A stretch of DNA of 20,310 nucleotides. It comes from Candidatus Hodarchaeota archaeon (lineage in GTDB: Archaea; Asgardarchaeota; Heimdallarchaeia; Hodarchaeales; Hodarchaeaceae). The stretch spans positions 1 to 20,310 of the forward strand of contig JAHQWW010000069.1 of assembly GCA_029856365.1 (NCBI GenBank), read 5' to 3'. Shown here one piece after another: positions 4,224-18,951 of this stretch (position 1 is the stretch's first letter; each line of letters starts with the position of its first letter). The position numbers were made by a program, and so were the translations under genes. The notes beneath the pieces are model-generated. The model did no database searches and was not told the origin of the DNA. It saw only the letters and a list, made by a program, of their open reading frames with translations.

Positions 4224-4317
4224 TTAATTTTACCTTTTTATTCTAGAAATTTAAGGAAAAGGAGCAATAAATCCATGATAGGTAAGAAAAGAAAGAAGGG
4301 AAAAAATTCCTTCGCTA

Positions 4318-4527
4318 TCAAAGTATTTTATCAACAAGAGCGATGAAAATCAAAAGCGCTCCAGTGCAAACAACACCAATAAACACTATTAATCCTACAG
4401 TATTGATATCATCATTACTGAATGCTTGAAAGGAAAAGAAAGCAACAGTAGCCCAAATAATTAGTAATCCTCCAACAAGGAGGTATTCTCGCCAGGTGAA
4501 CCTACTCAAAAAACCCTTTTCACTCAA
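4318..4527 (-). CDS. Small two-TM membrane protein, paralogue of 2699..2905
   Basis: 69 aa, TTG start after a GGTGG SD, two hydrophobic helices; shares the GFL..TWR, IIW, QA, DI.T.G and IA..D..L pattern with the paralogue. Confidence 0.8.
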   Translation of the reverse strand: MSEKGFLSRFTWREYLLVGGLLIIWATVAFFSFQAFSNDDINTVGLIVFIGVVCTGALLIFIALVDKIL

Positions 4528-4587
4528 CTAGACCGACCACCAATAATAATTTCTATTAATGAGTATTTAGCTAATTTTTCTACGAAG

Positions 4588-4597
4588 ATATATAAAA
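4588..4597 (-). promoter_or_regulatory. Putative TATA box of the 4318..4527 gene
   Basis: Minus strand TTTTATATAT about 60 bp upstream of the start. Confidence 0.5.
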
Positions 4598-4689
4598 GCT
4601 CGGTTATAATTTGTAGTAATATCGTTTTTTCCAAAGAAAAATTATAGAACTTAGTAATCATAATCGGCCTACAATCATTATTAAACGTG

Positions 4690-4773
4690 ATTAAAGAGAA
4701 GGGGACATTTTAGGAATTACTTGACAAAAAAGGCACATATACTGGGTTGTATGAAAAATAGTTCTTTGGATAG
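4690..4773 (+). pseudogene. Relic of the extreme C-terminus of an ABC exporter (MsbA/MdlB-type fused permease-ATPase)
   Basis: Frame from 4690 reads IKEKGTF*ELLDKKGTYTGLYEK*FFG*, matching the ABC-exporter tail consensus I.E.GTH.EL....G.Y..LY..QF, with two in-frame TAGs. No upstream ABC ORF remains. Confidence 0.65.
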
Positions 4774-5030
4774 GAGATCTAAGCGAGATACTGAGACAAT
4801 TTTAAACATCTCTCTTGTACAGGTGTCTTCTCTCACTTCAACAAAAAATTCGAGCTAATTTTCCTATATTTTCTACAACTCTTGAACTAACACCCTCAAT
4901 ATCAGAATAAAGCTCCTTTTAAAAATAGACAATATGATGAAGAATGTATACATCAAAATTCAGAAAGATCTAAATTAAGCTGTTGATCTAATGGATCTAA
5001 TTATGAAGATGAATTTAGGAATGAAATCAT

Positions 5031-7334
5031 ATGAAACGCTATAAAATGATATTTTTCGTCCTTGTGTTTTTAATTTTTGTTACACAATCCTCATTAAACC
5101 CTGTAACGGCAAAAATTCAAACATCTGGAACATTCTACGGGTTTGATTGGGAATATGGAGAAGAAACGAGAAACTTCATGAAGTCTGTAGCTTACTCGGA
5201 TTCTTTTTCTGAAAGTGAGTCTAATACTAAAACCAAAAGTTACACCTTGCAGGTTCCAATCCGTACCGGATTGGAAATCCAAGATATATTCTGGGAACGT
5301 TGGACCAATCGCTCAAAAGTGGCTCCTAGCGCTTCCTGGGAATTACCTGGTTCTCCCCAAAATTGGCCAGGATATCGTGCTGACGGGTATTTAAACAATA
5401 AAACTGGTCAAGGTAGTGCTTGGTTTCGGTATACAGGTGTTACTGTCAAAGGATGGGATTTTGGAATTTTTGGACAGGCAGCTAATTATTCATGGTTTGG
5501 TAGGCAAATCGATGTTGGTCTTGCAGAAATAGCCTTAATTCAAACGTGGAAAACTTCTTATGTTAATTTAACTGTTGGAGCCCCTGAATCTATACCAATG
5601 AAAGATTGGCTTGGAACTATCCATGATTATACTAATGTAAGGTCCTATCGTATTACTTACTCCTATGATAAGGGAACACCTGATCCCAGTGATGACGAAG
5701 TAGTCTTTGAAGAGTTATTGAACCCTCGCTTTGTCTTAGTGAGGGTTAAGACAACGAAATATACAGTTAATGTAGATGAAACAGCTACGGTAGCAGCTTC
5801 CCTTTCAGGGCAATTTAATTTCTCAGGTACATGGGAAGAGAACTTGTATGGACAACACGTATCTGTGAAAGATGGATCCAATTATTGGTTTGATTATTTT
5901 GCCTTAATCGAAGGTGATGTTGATTACGAGTTTGAGGGTGGTTTTACTTTGAAAGGTTATCTTTCTAGTAATCTGACACGAGAAGTTAGATTCACTAATG
6001 ATACAAAAGTTCCCGAATCAATACGACCAATCTGGCTCCAATCGTTACGTCTTCGCCTCGCGGGTGAATGGGATAACTATGCCAATGAATCTGGTGTTCT
6101 CTATGGTCAAGGGGCTATTCAAAGCATGATTCAAGTCCTTTTGACAAAAGCTTCTACAAGTCAATCCCCCAATCTTGCTGTGTGGGGTAATTTCAACCCT
6201 GGTAGAGTTATTGGATACAAGGATGTTGACGGCGATGAAATTCTAACTGCATTTCTAAATGAGTCACAAATTGCCACACCAGATGTTCTTATGGCAGTTG
6301 GTTTTCCTGAAGGTGCTCATCTTGAGGGTACCTATTACGCCAATGGTTTTGCTAATGCTGATGTATATTTCTCTCTTGGTGATCATATTTTCGCTGATAA
6401 TGAATCGTCCGTTACGGTGACTGTCGATAAAACTATTGATGAAACCTGGGGATATGATCCTCGACTCTCCGATTTAGATCCCACTGTGAGCTTAACCTGG
6501 ACTGATCCTACAGAGTCAGGTGGAAAAGCTACTTTTGAATGGGAAACGACTTACGCTGATGTACCAATGACATGGTGGGCAAAAAATGAAACATTAGAGC
6601 GTGTTTTTACTGATGTAACTGATATTACATATGGCTATTCTCTAATTATCGATCCAGTTTCAGGAGAAGCTATCTTAGAGAGTACTTATCAGCAATCAGA
6701 AATTGAAGATGCTGAATTAAAGCAGATGATGAGCTCACAACAAATGAGTATGGCTACCTACCGCCGAGACTACTACCTCACTATGACTAAATTTAACGCT
6801 GATATGTCAGGATCCTTTGCGAGACCTGAATCTCAATTTGATATGACTGTAGCAGGAGAGGATCTTTTCTCGCAGAACTTTGGTGGTGCTAAGGAAAAAT
6901 ATTATTTACATAATAATCCTGGAACTTTTTATGACTCAGGTACATCAATATTAAATCTTCTCACAGCTGAGGGTTTTTCAGGAGAACCTACTAATCAAAC
7001 TGAAAAAAATCCATACTCTTCACCCATATCTAAGAGACTCGCAGTAGCGTTAACTCAGTGGTCAGCAGATACTTATACAGCAGATATTTCTTGGCTTTTT
7101 CGTGAGAATTTGGTGATAACAAGTTATCCAACATGGGGTGGTGAAGGAGTTACTCATGATCCAGCGTATTCGGCATTTTATGCTGGAACGGAACCACGTG
7201 AGTCAGAGACATCAGAGACATCAGGGCCTCCAGCTTCGTCATCTGAAGAGGGTGTTCTTGGATTTGGGTTTACAAGTTCAGTAATTTTCTTATCAGTGGT
7301 CACTCTGATAATTAAAAAGCGTAAATATTCATAA
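5031..7334 (+). CDS. Large secreted cell-surface (glyco)protein with C-terminal membrane anchor
   Basis: Signal peptide MKRYKMIFFVLVFLIFVTQSSLNPVTA; beta-rich, S/T/aromatic-rich body; 12 N-x-S/T sequons counted; S/E/T/P linker, then LGF, a hydrophobic helix and KKRK (PGF-CTERM-like). Confidence 0.85.
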   Translation: MKRYKMIFFVLVFLIFVTQSSLNPVTAKIQTSGTFYGFDWEYGEETRNFMKSVAYSDSFSESESNTKTKSYTLQVPIRTGLEIQDIFWERWTNRSKVAPSASWELPGSPQNWPGYRADGYLNNKTGQGSAWFRYTGVTVKGWDFGIFGQAANYSWFGRQIDVGLAEIALIQTWKTSYVNLTVGAPESIPMKDWLGTIHDYTNVRSYRITYSYDKGTPDPSDDEVVFEELLNPRFVLVRVKTTKYTVNVDETATVAASLSGQFNFSGTWEENLYGQHVSVKDGSNYWFDYFALIEGDVDYEFEGGFTLKGYLSSNLTREVRFTNDTKVPESIRPIWLQSLRLRLAGEWDNYANESGVLYGQGAIQSMIQVLLTKASTSQSPNLAVWGNFNPGRVIGYKDVDGDEILTAFLNESQIATPDVLMAVGFPEGAHLEGTYYANGFANADVYFSLGDHIFADNESSVTVTVDKTIDETWGYDPRLSDLDPTVSLTWTDPTESGGKATFEWETTYADVPMTWWAKNETLERVFTDVTDITYGYSLIIDPVSGEAILESTYQQSEIEDAELKQMMSSQQMSMATYRRDYYLTMTKFNADMSGSFARPESQFDMTVAGEDLFSQNFGGAKEKYYLHNNPGTFYDSGTSILNLLTAEGFSGEPTNQTEKNPYSSPISKRLAVALTQWSADTYTADISWLFRENLVITSYPTWGGEGVTHDPAYSAFYAGTEPRESETSETSGPPASSSEEGVLGFGFTSSVIFLSVVTLIIKKRKYS

Positions 7335-13531: not shown

Positions 13532-13620
13532 TATTAACCACCGAGATTAGATATTTTGGTTCGATTACTTTTTAATCTCATTTCTGGAAATCGTTCAAAA
13601 AATGTTTAGGTGAAATAATT

Positions 13621-15693
13621 TTGGGACTTTTTGATGACAAAGTAGTTGTGATCACTGGTGCTGGAGGGGGAATCGGTCGTGCTCATGCTTTAAGTTTTGC
13701 ACGAGAAGGGGCTAAAGTAGTTGTCAATGATCTTGGAACAGCTCGTGATGGTTCTGGTTCCACGATTTCCATGGCAAACAATGTTGTTGAAGAGATTAAA
13801 GAACTTGGTGGAGAAGCTGTAGCAAATTATGATGATGTTGTGGATGGGGGAGCTCGTATCATTAAAACTGCTTTAGATAATTATGGGAAAATAGATATAC
13901 TAATTAATAACGCAGGAATTCTTAGAGATAAGACACTCATCAAAATGGAGGATGAAAGTTGGGATAAAGTTCTAGATATTCATCTACGAGGAACTTTTAG
14001 TTGTTCCCAGGCTGCTGCAAGAATAATGAAAGAGCAAGGAACAGGAGGGCGTATAATTAATACAACATCACTTGCGGGGTTAATGGGTAATTTCGGGCAA
14101 GCTAATTATGGCTCAGCAAAAGCTGGAATTTATGGTTTCACTAAAACAGTAGCCCTTGAGCTTGCACGATATGACATCACAGTAAACTGTATTGCTCCCA
14201 TGGCCAAAACACGTCTGACTGAGGATATTGACGGTGTCCCTAGCGAAATGACCCCTGAGCATGTTACTCCCATGGTTCTATTTCTTGCTAGTGATAAAGC
14301 TTGTGATATCACTGGCCGTATTTTTGGAATTCACGGTCAGCATTTATTTGAATATCAAATGAAGACAACTCCTGGAGTGGAAAAAGAAGGATATGAACTT
14401 TGGGCTATGGAAGAGATTGCAGAAAGATTTGAGGAAATTACAACTTTTCCAGAAGTTCCAACAAAAACAGAACTAGAAGGATCATCAATTGATGATGTTT
14501 TCCTCTTGATGCCACAGGCCTTTATACCAGAAGAAGCTGAAGGTTGGGAAACGACTCTGCATTTCGAATTAACAGGAGCAGATGACTGGTGTGTTATAGT
14601 TCATGATAGTAATGTTTCCGTATCAAAAGATATACCAGAGGAACCACGATGTGTCATTAAGATGAGCAGTGAAACCCTACAGAAGATGATTGAGGGGACT
14701 CTTGATCCAACAAAAGCATTTGTAGCTCAAAAAATTAAAGCTAGTCGATTACCTGAATTAGTTAGGTTTGATAAAGCCTTTTCCCTCAAAAAATTAAAAG
14801 AAATAATGCAATCAACAGAGAGTATTTCTGGTACAAGTAAAGAACCACTAGAAAGTGGTCTTGATCCTAATATTGTTGGTAAGATCTATGAGGGATCAAT
14901 AGAAACCGTTGATCCAGAAAAATCAATAGCTTATGCTAAAGCTACGAATGAAACAAACCCACGATATTATGAATCTGATGAAAATAAGCTAACTATCCCA
15001 CCTCTTTTCCCAGTAACAATGTTGGTTGATCCAATGAAACAGATTGTTGCGGATGACACACTAAACCTCGACATTTTCCGAATGGTTCACGGTGAACACG
15101 AAATCCTATACCATCGACCATTAAGACTATGGGATAAGATCAAGATAAAGGTTGAATTAGACTCTATTGATGTTAAAGAAGCAGGAGATGTTTTGTGGGC
15201 TAAAAATTTAGGTTACGCAGGAGAAGAGCTTGTTTTTGAAATGCGAGCTGGAATGTTTTTCAGGAAACCGAGAAAAGGAGTTCGATCCAAGAGAAAGGAA
15301 AAAGAAATTGAAAGAGAGATAATTATTACAAAAAAGATGAATGTTACTCCTGATCAGTCTGTTCGTTACGCAGCTGCCTCTGGAGACGATAATCCTATTC
15401 ATGTAGATAGAGATATAGCTTTGGCTGTTGGATTACCTGATATCATTCTTCATGGATTATGTACTTTAGCTTTCGCAACACAGGCCATTGTCGACGGTCT
15501 GGCAGAAGGAGATCCTACAAAGGTCAAAAGAATAAAAGTAAGATTTTCAAAACCAGTCTTCATGGAGGACACGCTTACTACAGAAGGATGGTTACAGGAG
15601 GAAAACAAAACAAGTAAAATAATTGGGTTTGAAACCAAAAATGAAAAAGGAGATGCTGTACTGAAACTTGGATCTATAGAACTCTTAAAGTAA
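13621..15693 (+). CDS. Multifunctional SDR dehydrogenase + SCP2 + MaoC-type double hot-dog (R)-enoyl-CoA hydratase fusion (MFE-2-like)
   Basis: aa 1-275 SDR (TGAGGGIG, VVVNDLG, NNAGILRD, NFGQANYGSAK); aa ~289-388 SCP2-like (LHFELTG..W...GTLDPTKAFVAQKIKAS); aa ~413-690 hydratase (VHGEH, YAAASGDDNPIHVDRDIA, ILHGLCT, VRFSKPV). TTG start after AGGTGA. Confidence 0.93.
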   Translation: MGLFDDKVVVITGAGGGIGRAHALSFAREGAKVVVNDLGTARDGSGSTISMANNVVEEIKELGGEAVANYDDVVDGGARIIKTALDNYGKIDILINNAGILRDKTLIKMEDESWDKVLDIHLRGTFSCSQAAARIMKEQGTGGRIINTTSLAGLMGNFGQANYGSAKAGIYGFTKTVALELARYDITVNCIAPMAKTRLTEDIDGVPSEMTPEHVTPMVLFLASDKACDITGRIFGIHGQHLFEYQMKTTPGVEKEGYELWAMEEIAERFEEITTFPEVPTKTELEGSSIDDVFLLMPQAFIPEEAEGWETTLHFELTGADDWCVIVHDSNVSVSKDIPEEPRCVIKMSSETLQKMIEGTLDPTKAFVAQKIKASRLPELVRFDKAFSLKKLKEIMQSTESISGTSKEPLESGLDPNIVGKIYEGSIETVDPEKSIAYAKATNETNPRYYESDENKLTIPPLFPVTMLVDPMKQIVADDTLNLDIFRMVHGEHEILYHRPLRLWDKIKIKVELDSIDVKEAGDVLWAKNLGYAGEELVFEMRAGMFFRKPRKGVRSKRKEKEIEREIIITKKMNVTPDQSVRYAAASGDDNPIHVDRDIALAVGLPDIILHGLCTLAFATQAIVDGLAEGDPTKVKRIKVRFSKPVFMEDTLTTEGWLQEENKTSKIIGFETKNEKGDAVLKLGSIELLK

Positions 15694-17587: not shown

Positions 17588-18166
17588 ATGAGTGAATATG
17601 AATCAGAAAAAAATAACGACATTGAAAGTGAAGATGTGCAAAAAGAACCAAAAACCGAAGATGAAGGTTGGAAAGAAGGGAAATCTAAACTCAAAAATGT
17701 TACTATCCGTGGAATTGATAGTGATATCTATGACCAATTTTCATACAAGATTAGAAATCTACGAATGAATTTAGGAGAAGCCATTACAAAAATGATGAAT
17801 GACATCATTGTAGATTTAGATGACTCTCTAGATCATCTTCCTGCGTTACGGGCAAGAACCACATTCGATAATTTTACTCTTGAGAGGTTATCAATTAATC
17901 ACTATGATCGACTCAAGATTAGTCGAGCTGATCTCGAGGAAGCAAACGCACAAGTTAATTTCTCACATATTGATAAACTCATATTTCTTCCTGATGTGAC
18001 ACGAGAGGTTTTTACTCGATATGTAAAGAGTGTTACTCATTGTGGAATTGTTAGAATGCCATCAATTTTTCCTAAACTTATTATGTATTCTAAACTTCAA
18101 TTTTGTGATAGAATTGAAGTTTATAACGTAGAAGATGCCAATTCAAAGAATTCCTTTGAAGATTGA
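17588..18166 (+). CDS. Hypothetical protein: acidic N-tail, ribbon-helix-helix-like segment, C-terminal repeat domain
   Basis: ATG after GAGG; KNVTIRGIDSDIYDQFSYKIRNLRMNLGEAITKMM fits the RHH strand-helix-helix pattern; paralogous to the next gene. Confidence 0.8.
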   Translation: MSEYESEKNNDIESEDVQKEPKTEDEGWKEGKSKLKNVTIRGIDSDIYDQFSYKIRNLRMNLGEAITKMMNDIIVDLDDSLDHLPALRARTTFDNFTLERLSINHYDRLKISRADLEEANAQVNFSHIDKLIFLPDVTREVFTRYVKSVTHCGIVRMPSIFPKLIMYSKLQFCDRIEVYNVEDANSKNSFED

Positions 18167-18204: not shown

Positions 18205-18951
18205 ATGAGTGTGAAAGTAATCAATCCTACTCAACTAAAGGCTGAGTTATCAAAGGAGATTGAAACATATCGTAATCAAGTTCAGAAAAAAGAAGTATCT
18301 AAAGAGGAATTGGTAATTTTAGTAGAAAAAATACTCTTTGAACGAGAGATTCTCTTTAGCGAGATTGATGTCCTCAAAGAAGCACATAACAAATGGATAC
18401 GAAAATATGACTTGAATGAAGAATCTTTAAACCTTTTAATCAAAGAAATTGATGAATTGTTATACAATGATTTCTATAATTTATCAAAGAAGTTAGATTA
18501 TAATCCAGGAGAGCTTCTTACATCTTTGATGGAAGATTTTGTCTTGAAATTTAATGGGGCATTTCCTGACTTCTCAGCGGACAGTTTAAGAAAACTAATG
18601 AAGAGACAGGCAGAGATATCTGTCAGTCATCAGGATCAGCTTACAATTACGAACAAAGACCTCTTAGATCTATCAGAAACAAATATAATGATAAATTTCA
18701 ATTATATTGATACATTAGAGTTCGTTAATGTAGATTTAAAAACTTTTAAGGAGCTTGTTAACTCAATTAATCATTGCCATCTTGTAAGAGTGCCTGAAAC
18801 AATACCTAAATTGTTATTATATACGAAATGTCACCAATGTTCATATTTCGAATTTTTAGAGCAAGATCCTCACCCCAAACTAGATAGTAAGAAGTTAGAA
18901 TACGCCAGAGAGGCGAATAAAGTCGTTGCAGATTGGGGAAATGGTATTTAA
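18205..18951 (+). CDS. Hypothetical protein, paralogue of 17588..18166 with N-terminal helical/coiled-coil extension
   Basis: ATG after GGTGTGA; NLLIKEIDELLYNDF...NPGELLTSLM and SHQDQLTIT..DL...INFNYIDTLEF...HCHLVRVPETIPKLLLYTKC align to the upstream gene product. Confidence 0.8.
   Translation: MSVKVINPTQLKAELSKEIETYRNQVQKKEVSKEELVILVEKILFEREILFSEIDVLKEAHNKWIRKYDLNEESLNLLIKEIDELLYNDFYNLSKKLDYNPGELLTSLMEDFVLKFNGAFPDFSADSLRKLMKRQAEISVSHQDQLTITNKDLLDLSETNIMINFNYIDTLEFVNVDLKTFKELVNSINHCHLVRVPETIPKLLLYTKCHQCSYFEFLEQDPHPKLDSKKLEYAREANKVVADWGNGI

Follow-up and report, generated by a model that had tools for sequence, protein, structure and literature searches.

A three-domain fusion gene of an Asgard archaeon was analyzed in a contig of 20,310 nucleotides (nt) from Candidatus Hodarchaeota archaeon (assembly GCA_029856365.1, contig JAHQWW010000069.1, positions 1 to 20,310), referred to below as the window. 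The gene lies at 13621..15693 on the forward strand and encodes a protein of 690 amino acids (aa), in which a short-chain dehydrogenase/reductase (SDR), a sterol carrier protein 2 (SCP2) domain and a hydratase 2 follow one another. The data are best explained by a bifunctional enzyme of R-specific beta-oxidation, which belongs to a prokaryotic fusion family, was acquired horizontally and is not an ancestor of the eukaryotic peroxisomal multifunctional enzyme type 2 (MFE-2), and we regard this explanation as probable. The predicted protein is a clear member of a mostly bacterial SDR-(SCP2)n-hydratase 2 family, with n = 1.

The open reading frame (ORF) starts with TTG, includes the TAA stop codon, has no interruption and is the longest frame of its region; its product is identical to the fusion protein recorded as P0002. 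Since the N-terminus M-G-L-F-D-D-K-V-V-V-I-T-G agrees with the family consensus (18 homologues aligned), the TTG start is correct. Pfam placed adh_short at residues 7-200 (E 9e-47), SCP2 at residues 304-373 (E 6e-10, 39.8 bits against a curated cut-off of 21.3), FAS1_DH_region/MFE-2_hydrat-2_N at residues 419-548, which is the N-terminal hot-dog of the hydratase, and MaoC_dehydratas at residues 560-675 (E 3e-30). With the structure comparisons given below, the protein was divided into an MFE-2-type SDR with its C-terminal extension (residues 1-278, 13621..14454), a first flexible linker (residues 279-287, 14455..14481), a predicted SCP2-fold lipid-binding domain (residues 288-400, 14482..14820), a second flexible linker (residues 401-412, 14821..14856) and a hydratase 2 double hot-dog (residues 413-690, 14857..15690), all on the forward strand. 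A preliminary description of this DNA had proposed an uninterrupted 690-aa ORF with an SDR, an SCP2-like domain and a double hot-dog, and Pfam and the models agree with it; the order SDR-SCP2-hydratase 2 in an archaeon was likewise confirmed by Pfam and by the family comparison. The motifs quoted there (VVVNDLG, NNAGILRD, NFGQANY..AK, HGLCT and YAAASGDDNPIH at nt 15367) were all found at the positions given, and the C-terminus is indeed ELLK, without a peroxisomal targeting signal type 1 (PTS1). The SCP2 identity of the middle domain, on which that description had made its reading depend, was borne out by the Pfam score and by fold matches.

The active-site residues of both catalytic domains are present. 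The SDR contains TGAGGGIG (T12-G19), D37 within VVVNDLG, NNAG at residues 96-99 and the catalytic residues S150, Y163 and K167, and aligns with residues 7-279 of 1gz6. In classical SDRs, an acidic residue after strand beta-2 together with the lack of a basic residue in the glycine motif goes with NAD(H). D37 stands after strand beta-2 and is aligned with VVVNDLG in the MFE-2 enzymes of rat and yeast, which are NAD+-dependent, and TGAGGGIG contains no basic residue and no Arg, so that NAD(H) is indicated for the fusion SDR. In the hydratase, the N-terminal non-catalytic hot-dog carries HGE with H490 and E492, and the C-terminal MaoC hot-dog carries D589 and H594 in SGDDNPIH and G612 in HGLCT. 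The hydratase 2 motif pattern is [YF]-x(1,2)-[LVIG]-[STGC]-G-D-x-N-P-[LIV]-H-x5-[AS]; the motif found here (15367..15402, forward strand) begins at residue 583 and reads Y583-A-A-A-S-G-D589-D-N-P-I-H594-x5-A. In 47 family members, D589, H594, G612, H490 and E492 of the hydratase and S150, Y163, K167, NNAG and D37 of the SDR were invariant.

A full-length AlphaFold model built on the 47 family sequences had a mean predicted local distance difference test score (pLDDT) of 87.6 and showed three compact modules with a low-confidence linker (pLDDT <50) between each and the next; at a predicted template modelling score (pTM) of 0.45, the model does not define how the modules are placed relative to one another. 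Its top Foldseek match was the complete Drosophila MFE-2 (3oml, E 1.7e-42), followed by the dehydrogenase of rat and human MFE-2, mycobacterial Hsd4A-like SDRs and human hydratase 2. The top-scoring Protein Data Bank (PDB) entry for the SDR domain was 2et6 (fungal Fox2), with 1gz6, 1zbq and 3oml also matched, and that for the hydratase domain was the hydratase 2 of human MFE-2 (1s9c, E 1e-21). The middle domain modelled alone reached a pLDDT of 90.5 and a pTM of 0.80 and resembled the SCP2-like domains of alkylsulfatases (template modelling score 0.69-0.76, Foldseek); other fold matches were Archaeoglobus AF1534, the SCP-2L domain of human MFE-2 (1ikt), SCP2 (1c44), 3bn8 and UbiJ. The PDB sequence search with the SCP2 domain alone gave nothing significant (E 0.1-0.5), and the SCP2 identity therefore rests on Pfam and on fold comparison.

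The same domain order was found throughout a family of prokaryotic proteins, in each of which the domains were located by BLAST. All 120 of the 120 best database matches had the order SDR-(SCP2)1-5-hydratase, with one SCP2 copy in 12 proteins, two in 46, three in 54, four in 7 and five in 1. A second search added 42 further complete SDR-(SCP2)1-3-hydratase proteins, together with truncated fragments, in the same order; most of these additions were bacterial single-SCP2 forms of 650-700 aa. The named sources of the family were Planctomycetota, Myxococcota, Bradymonadales, Nitrospinae, Bdellovibrionota, Oligoflexia, Pseudomonadota, a metagenome-assembled genome (MAG) labelled Rickettsiales and a few Asgard MAGs. 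The nearest homologues, about 700 aa long and 63-80% identical, belong to MAGs with the labels Hodarchaeota/Hodarchaeales, Hermodarchaeota, Odinarchaeota and Promethearchaeota, and a cluster mate labelled 'Candidatus Hodarchaeota archaeon' was 78% identical. The family as a whole is uncharacterised and annotated as 'SDR family NAD(P)-dependent oxidoreductase'. Its members share with the window protein the domain order, the clade for each domain and the catalytic residues, at 42-56% overall identity; most bacterial members have 2-5 tandem SCP2 domains, whereas the Asgard members have one, or two in P0006 and P0007. No account of this domain order, nor of MFE-2 in Asgard archaea, was found in the literature. 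The SCP2 repeats within P0015, P0039, P0049 and P0062 were almost identical (branch lengths 0.05-0.17). In the SCP2 tree, the copies inside one protein were usually the nearest kin of each other, and such near-identical copies indicate that the copy number is set by recent, lineage-specific tandem duplication.

The relationship to eukaryotic MFE-2 was analyzed with separate trees of the three domains. The first homologue search listed prokaryotic fusions only; eukaryotic sequences were obtained with a 400-aa SDR+SCP2 query, which excluded the long bacterial forms by length, and with a representative search with chytrid Fox2. The eukaryotes in the trees were mostly opisthokont (fish, mollusc, insect, amphioxus, tick, Salpingoeca, Eimeria and several chytrid and dikaryan Fox2), and the two SDR domains of each Fox2 were entered separately. 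All trees were IQ-TREE quick searches with SH-aLRT support only and no bootstraps, under LG+G4 and LG+C20+F+G4 with posterior mean site frequencies (PMSF); the SDR tree was built from 128 rows with LG+G4 and from 76 with LG+C20+F+G4 (PMSF). In the SDR tree, the Asgard fusions formed one group, beside the 275-aa stand-alone SDRs of Hodarchaeales, and this group lay inside the clade to which all bacterial SDR-(SCP2)n-hydratase proteins belong. The fusion clade was split from the eukaryotes with an SH-aLRT of 99-100% and a branch length of 0.49 (PMSF), and on the eukaryote side stood the Myxococcales protein of canonical order together with Pseudomonas, Haliea, actinobacterial and Desulfobacterales forms. 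The hydratase tree gave the same split of Asgard and bacterial sequences from the eukaryotes (SH-aLRT 100%, branch length 1.39, PMSF), and so did the SCP2 tree with a support of 94%. In approximately unbiased (AU) tests, forcing Asgard and eukaryotic sequences together was rejected for both the SDR (delta-lnL 278.8, p 2e-41) and the hydratase (delta-lnL 193.9, p 6e-6); the tested grouping was the one put forward in the preliminary description and had been fixed before any tree was built.

That description had suggested a bearing on the origin of peroxisomal metabolism, and the corresponding explanation is that peroxisomal MFE-2 descends directly from such a fusion of the archaeal host, its domains having been reshuffled later in eukaryotes. 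The host of the gene is indeed an Asgard archaeon of the Hodarchaeales, and the top solved structures for the SDR and the hydratase are those of eukaryotic MFE-2, but the PDB contains almost no members of the bacterial family. Against this descent, all three domain trees place the Asgard proteins with the bacterial fusions, with the eukaryotes across a strongly supported branch, and the AU tests reject the alternative; the domains thus nest with bacteria, far from eukaryotic MFE-2. The SDR is also closer to the bacterial fusions (55-68% identity) than to fungal Fox2 (41-54%), the fusion occurs only patchily among Asgard genomes, and its domain order is normal in a mainly bacterial family. Furthermore, the canonical eukaryotic order SDR-hydratase-SCP2-SCP2 is already present in P0274 (Myxococcales MAG, 1001 aa), which groups with the eukaryotes. 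Fox2/MFE-2 has been assigned an alpha-proteobacterial origin (PMC1472686), and this published origin, the domain trees and the AU tests together leave the link of ancestry between the Asgard fusion and MFE-2 without support; we consider it very improbable. Most likely, horizontal transfer brought the fusion gene into a few Asgard lineages, and eukaryotic MFE-2 does not descend from it, in line with the alternative of similar bacterial fusions and horizontal transfer that the preliminary description had also named. We infer the direction, from bacteria to archaea, from the breadth of the distribution (at least six bacterial phyla versus a few Asgard lineages) and not from the tree topology. A tempting but wrong link from Asgard archaea to the origin of peroxisomal beta-oxidation is thereby removed, and among the prokaryotes in these data, the closest relatives of eukaryotic MFE-2 are bacterial proteins, including the Myxococcales protein with the eukaryotic domain order. 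Four sequences, P0274 (bacterial) and P0294, P0273 and P0378 (metagenomic), have the order SDR-hydratase-SCP2-SCP2 or SDR-hydratase and group with eukaryotic MFE-2, P0274 and P0294 in all three domain trees. The eukaryotic architecture may have been inherited from bacteria in already fused form, or may have been transferred back.

The MFE-2 of animals and choanoflagellates (HSD17B4, D-bifunctional protein) has the same three domain types as the window protein and shares with it VVVNDLG, NNAGILRD, GNFGQANY..AK, the C-terminal extension of the SDR, the Asp/His motif of hydratase 2, HGLCT and the SCP2 fold, the best matched PDB entries being 1gz6, 1zbq, 1s9c, 3oml and 1ikt. However, MFE-2 has the order SDR-hydratase-SCP2 with a PTS1, whereas the window protein has the order SDR-SCP2-hydratase without PTS1, and MFE-2 falls into a separate, strongly supported clade for all three domains, with SDRs about 42-45% identical. 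The predicted protein would work like MFE-2 but fails two of its defining features, the domain order and the phylogenetic grouping. Fungal Fox2 is alike in its MFE-2-type SDR and hydratase 2, but has two SDRs and no SCP2, and its SDRs, 41-54% identical to that of the window, stand on the eukaryotic side of the trees. The actinobacterial ChsB1/Hsd4A, an SDR of cholesterol side-chain degradation, and its MaoC hydratases also combine an SDR with an R-hydratase on CoA thioesters, and structures of the ChsB1/Hsd4A type were among the close fold matches (3qlj, 7ulh and 7lg9). These enzymes, like the pairs of Bradyrhizobium, Haliea and Acidimicrobiia, in which the SDR and hydratase 2 genes adjoin, are encoded by separate genes, have no SCP2 and lie in different clades in the trees of SDR and hydratase. 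In an archaeon, R-specific acyl-CoA chemistry is represented by the NADPH-dependent ketoacyl-CoA reductase Saci_1104 and the MaoC dehydratase Saci_1085 of Sulfolobus acidocaldarius; these are separate proteins in a thiolase/DUF35 complex with a strictly NADPH-dependent reductase, whereas the window protein is an SCP2-linked fusion with an NAD-type motif.

The distribution of the gene was examined in 399 Asgard species genomes. A complete gene was present in two of them, that of the window (G000) and that of a congener (G072, 79% identity), in which the neighbourhood differs from that of the window. In G078, of a sister family, the gene is probably present but split over two contig ends; the reading that its SDR and SCP2-hydratase are two separate genes was rejected, since both pieces end at contig edges and a contig break accounts for them. 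In four other Asgard families, the only counterpart was a distinct SDR of about 315 aa that stands alone (43-53% identical) and, together with an Acidimicrobiia sequence, makes up a clade of its own. Within the genus, 10 or 11 congeners carry a stand-alone hydratase 2 in an open frame of 283-304 aa, which shares 52-88% identity with the window protein over residues 404-690 of the latter. This survey of domain order, which the preliminary description had proposed, thus showed the fusion to be patchy among Asgard archaea and in the course of being lost within its own genus.

In 6 congeners, the hydratase-only gene lies in the window's own neighbourhood. It is flanked by both the divergent M20 peptidase gene and the amidohydrolase gene in three species (L010 of G074, L012 of G075 and L013 of G067); the M20 gene was seen in two others (L011 of G076 and L014 of G071), and in L017 of G060 the amidohydrolase gene was seen, the place of M20 being taken by genes for NAD synthase and transglutaminase. 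The region upstream of the gene is alignable between the species, and the 89-nt intergenic region between the fusion gene and the divergent M20 peptidase gene (13532..13620) is conserved by alignment and synteny, also in hydratase-only sister species. In G074 and G075, the same TTG start and the M-G-L codons are kept and are followed directly by E/D-S-G-L-D/N-P, which corresponds to the window protein from residue 411 onward. The junction in G075 corresponds to an in-frame deletion of 1221 nt between the ACT triplets at 13626-13628 and 14847-14849, which form a microhomology; the segment missing from the syntenic gene covers 13629..14849 of the window (about codons 4-409, SDR and SCP2). The junction in G074 differs from it by 3 nt, and G067 and G071 have other junctions, so that there are at least three junction types overall. 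Since M-G-L is the conserved SDR N-terminus across the family, the hydratase-only genes are deletion derivatives and not ancestors; their interpretation as the ancestral state was rejected because the promoter region is retained in them, as are the TTG start and the codons for M-G-L from the N-terminus of the SDR.

The SDR-SCP2 part has been repeatedly removed by in-frame deletion at one locus within the genus. In the hydratase tree, the fused forms of the genus are mixed with the stand-alone ones, and at least 4-5 changes of state are required by branches with strong support. Such mixing means that deletions occurred several times independently, or that a single deletion allele was passed on through recombination, and the differing junctions favour more than one deletion event. 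A strict complementarity between the fusion and a stand-alone SDR was rejected for this genus: only three hydratase-only genomes have a 275-aa MFE-2-type SDR elsewhere, and five others have no close one. Most congeners contain an ORF of about 423 aa (for example G074:C6:258799-259524 and G075:C217:3894-4616). Over its first 240 residues, this ORF is an SDR with 43-45% identity to the MFE-2-type SDR, and its length points to a further C-terminal domain, possibly in an HSDL2-like SDR-SCP2 arrangement.

In MFE-2, the Asp/His pair of hydratase 2 converts trans-2-enoyl-CoA to (3R)-hydroxyacyl-CoA, which the SDR oxidises with NAD+ to 3-ketoacyl-CoA. The intact catalytic motifs make R-specific chemistry a sensible inference for the fusion protein as well, and most likely it performs the second and third steps of beta-oxidation in R-specific form, beside the classical S-specific route. 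The C-terminal double hot-dog (Asp589/His594) would hydrate trans-2-enoyl-CoA to (3R)-hydroxyacyl-CoA, and the N-terminal SDR (Ser150/Tyr163/Lys167, with the NAD-type Asp37) would oxidise this product with NAD+ to 3-ketoacyl-CoA. The SCP2 domain, placed between the catalytic domains on two flexible linkers, would bind long or branched substrates by their hydrophobic acyl tail. The partners of the enzyme would be the separate acyl-CoA dehydrogenases (ACADs) and thiolases of the genome, in parallel to the S-specific FadB-like system. The analysis itself shows the domain folds, the motifs, the membership in the family, the position in the trees and the deletions; stereochemistry, cofactor, direction of flux and the role of SCP2 are deduced. 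In these terms, the results document a large, unstudied group of putative R-specific beta-oxidation enzymes with 1-5 SCP2 domains between two catalytic halves.

The genome is 4.24 Mb in size, about 84% complete and contains one copy of the fusion gene. It encodes in total 6 ACADs, 6 thiolases, 6 crotonases and 4 3-hydroxyacyl-CoA dehydrogenases (HADHs), and holds a complete classical S-specific set for beta-oxidation. At C67:11908-17225 of the same genome, an HADH, a FadB-like fusion of HADH and enoyl-CoA hydratase (ECH) of 670 aa, a thiolase and two stand-alone SCP2 genes were found in one run, and C179:35725-36531 encodes an ACAD of 520 aa whose C-terminal part is an SCP2. SCP2 is thus fused to, or lies beside, several beta-oxidation enzymes in this organism. 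In the Oligoflexia member L041, the gene run is ACAD, MBL-fold protein, thiolase, fusion gene and SDR, with a second ACAD, an acyl-CoA ligase-like gene and malate synthase nearby; this gene setting is catabolic.

Several observations weigh against an R-specific beta-oxidation enzyme acquired by transfer. The hydratase 2 motif has one deviation, an Ala at the [LVIG] position. The neighbours of the gene (M20 peptidase, amidohydrolase and NAD synthase) offer no pathway context, and the nearest acyl-CoA synthetase gene is 3.4 kb off on the opposite strand. Several hydratase-only sister species have no close MFE-2-type SDR, which means that the coupled two-step role is dispensable there. The whole fusion family is known as sequences. 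On the phylogenetic side, the backbone within the SDR-SCP2-hydratase clade is without resolution, and the sequences sister to the Asgard group (P0021, P0025, P0240 and P0120) carry no taxon name. In addition, in Sulfolobus the R-specific SDR and MaoC dehydratase act in fatty-acid synthesis, and the S-specific HADH/ECH fusion carries out beta-oxidation (bioRxiv 10.1101/2024.07.05.601840); the genome of the window likewise has an S-specific HADH-ECH fusion.

The main functional rival follows from this last comparison. The protein would then act in the biosynthetic direction, as ketoacyl-CoA reductase and (R)-hydroxyacyl-CoA dehydratase of an ACP-independent fatty-acid synthesis or reverse beta-oxidation, with SCP2 holding the growing chain. 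With R-specific enzymes for synthesis and an S-specific fusion for degradation in S. acidocaldarius, the R-route of the present genome, which has the S-specific HADH-ECH fusion and thiolase, could be anabolic as well. However, the Sulfolobus reductase is strictly NADPH-dependent, whereas the fusion SDR has the NAD-type Asp37 and no Arg in TGAGGGIG; the bacterial member in an ACAD-thiolase operon near malate synthase shows a catabolic signature; and no thiolase/DUF35 pair or medium-chain dehydrogenase/reductase (MDR) enoyl-CoA reductase gene was found within the 20-kb window. We therefore hold the biosynthetic direction to be unlikely. A further explanation, to which we give about the same small weight, is an auxiliary role in which hydratase 2 alone is essential, as an epimerase together with crotonases or as a PhaJ-like supplier of (R)-3-hydroxyacyl-CoA, and SDR-SCP2 is optional. 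It would account for the 10 or 11 species of the genus that keep the hydratase alone, at this or another locus, and for the five of them without a close MFE-2-type SDR, and the six crotonase-type hydratases of the genome would be possible partners. The hydratase-only alleles do indicate that hydratase 2 alone has value, perhaps as epimerase partner of a crotonase. Yet the three-domain form is conserved, both in several Asgard MAGs, with 63-80% identity, and across the bacterial family, and the invariant SDR catalytic residues imply that the dehydrogenase is under selection wherever it is present. R-specific beta-oxidation by both catalytic halves is thus the reading that we prefer.

The finding has no bearing on eukaryogenesis; its most interesting remaining points are the variable internal SCP2 array and the repeated domain deletions. 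With the deletions, a single genus offers a clean natural case of domains being lost in frame, repeatedly, from one locus. With regard to the array, it is conceivable, though we would not expect it, that the internal SCP2 serves as a non-covalent 'swinging carrier', which, tethered by the flexible linkers between the two active sites, holds the acyl tail and hands very hydrophobic substrates from the hydratase to the dehydrogenase, the copy number of 1-5 tuning the capacity. If so, candidate substrates would be long-chain, 2-methyl-branched and isoprenoid-derived acyl-CoAs from archaeal lipids, and the SCP2 copy number would work like the tandem acyl carrier proteins (ACPs) of polyunsaturated fatty acid synthases. 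On this view, the SDR-(SCP2)n-hydratase family would represent a mechanism in its own right and not merely a shuffled MFE-2.

Other arrangements of these domains were also seen in bacteria, namely hydratase-SDR-SCP2 and X-SDR-SCP2 in Desulfobacterales. In the Desulfobacterales loci L044, L045, L053 and L091 (P0318, P0325), two fusion genes stand in succession; the first encodes hydratase-SDR-SCP2 (about 700 aa), and the second, of about 910 aa, has an N-terminal thiolase/HMG-CoA-synthase-like part followed by SDR and SCP2. A search for related loci on genome contigs gave only bacterial sequences among the matches listed, mostly stand-alone SDRs, and no Asgard sequence. The window itself has a G+C content of about 36%, and tRNA and Rfam scans of it were empty. 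Three of its ORFs, at 5031-7334, 17588-18166 and 18205-18951 on the forward strand (767, 192 and 248 aa), had no Pfam match at E 0.001, and the 767-aa ORF is preceded by an untranslated gap of about 800 nt (4224-5030).

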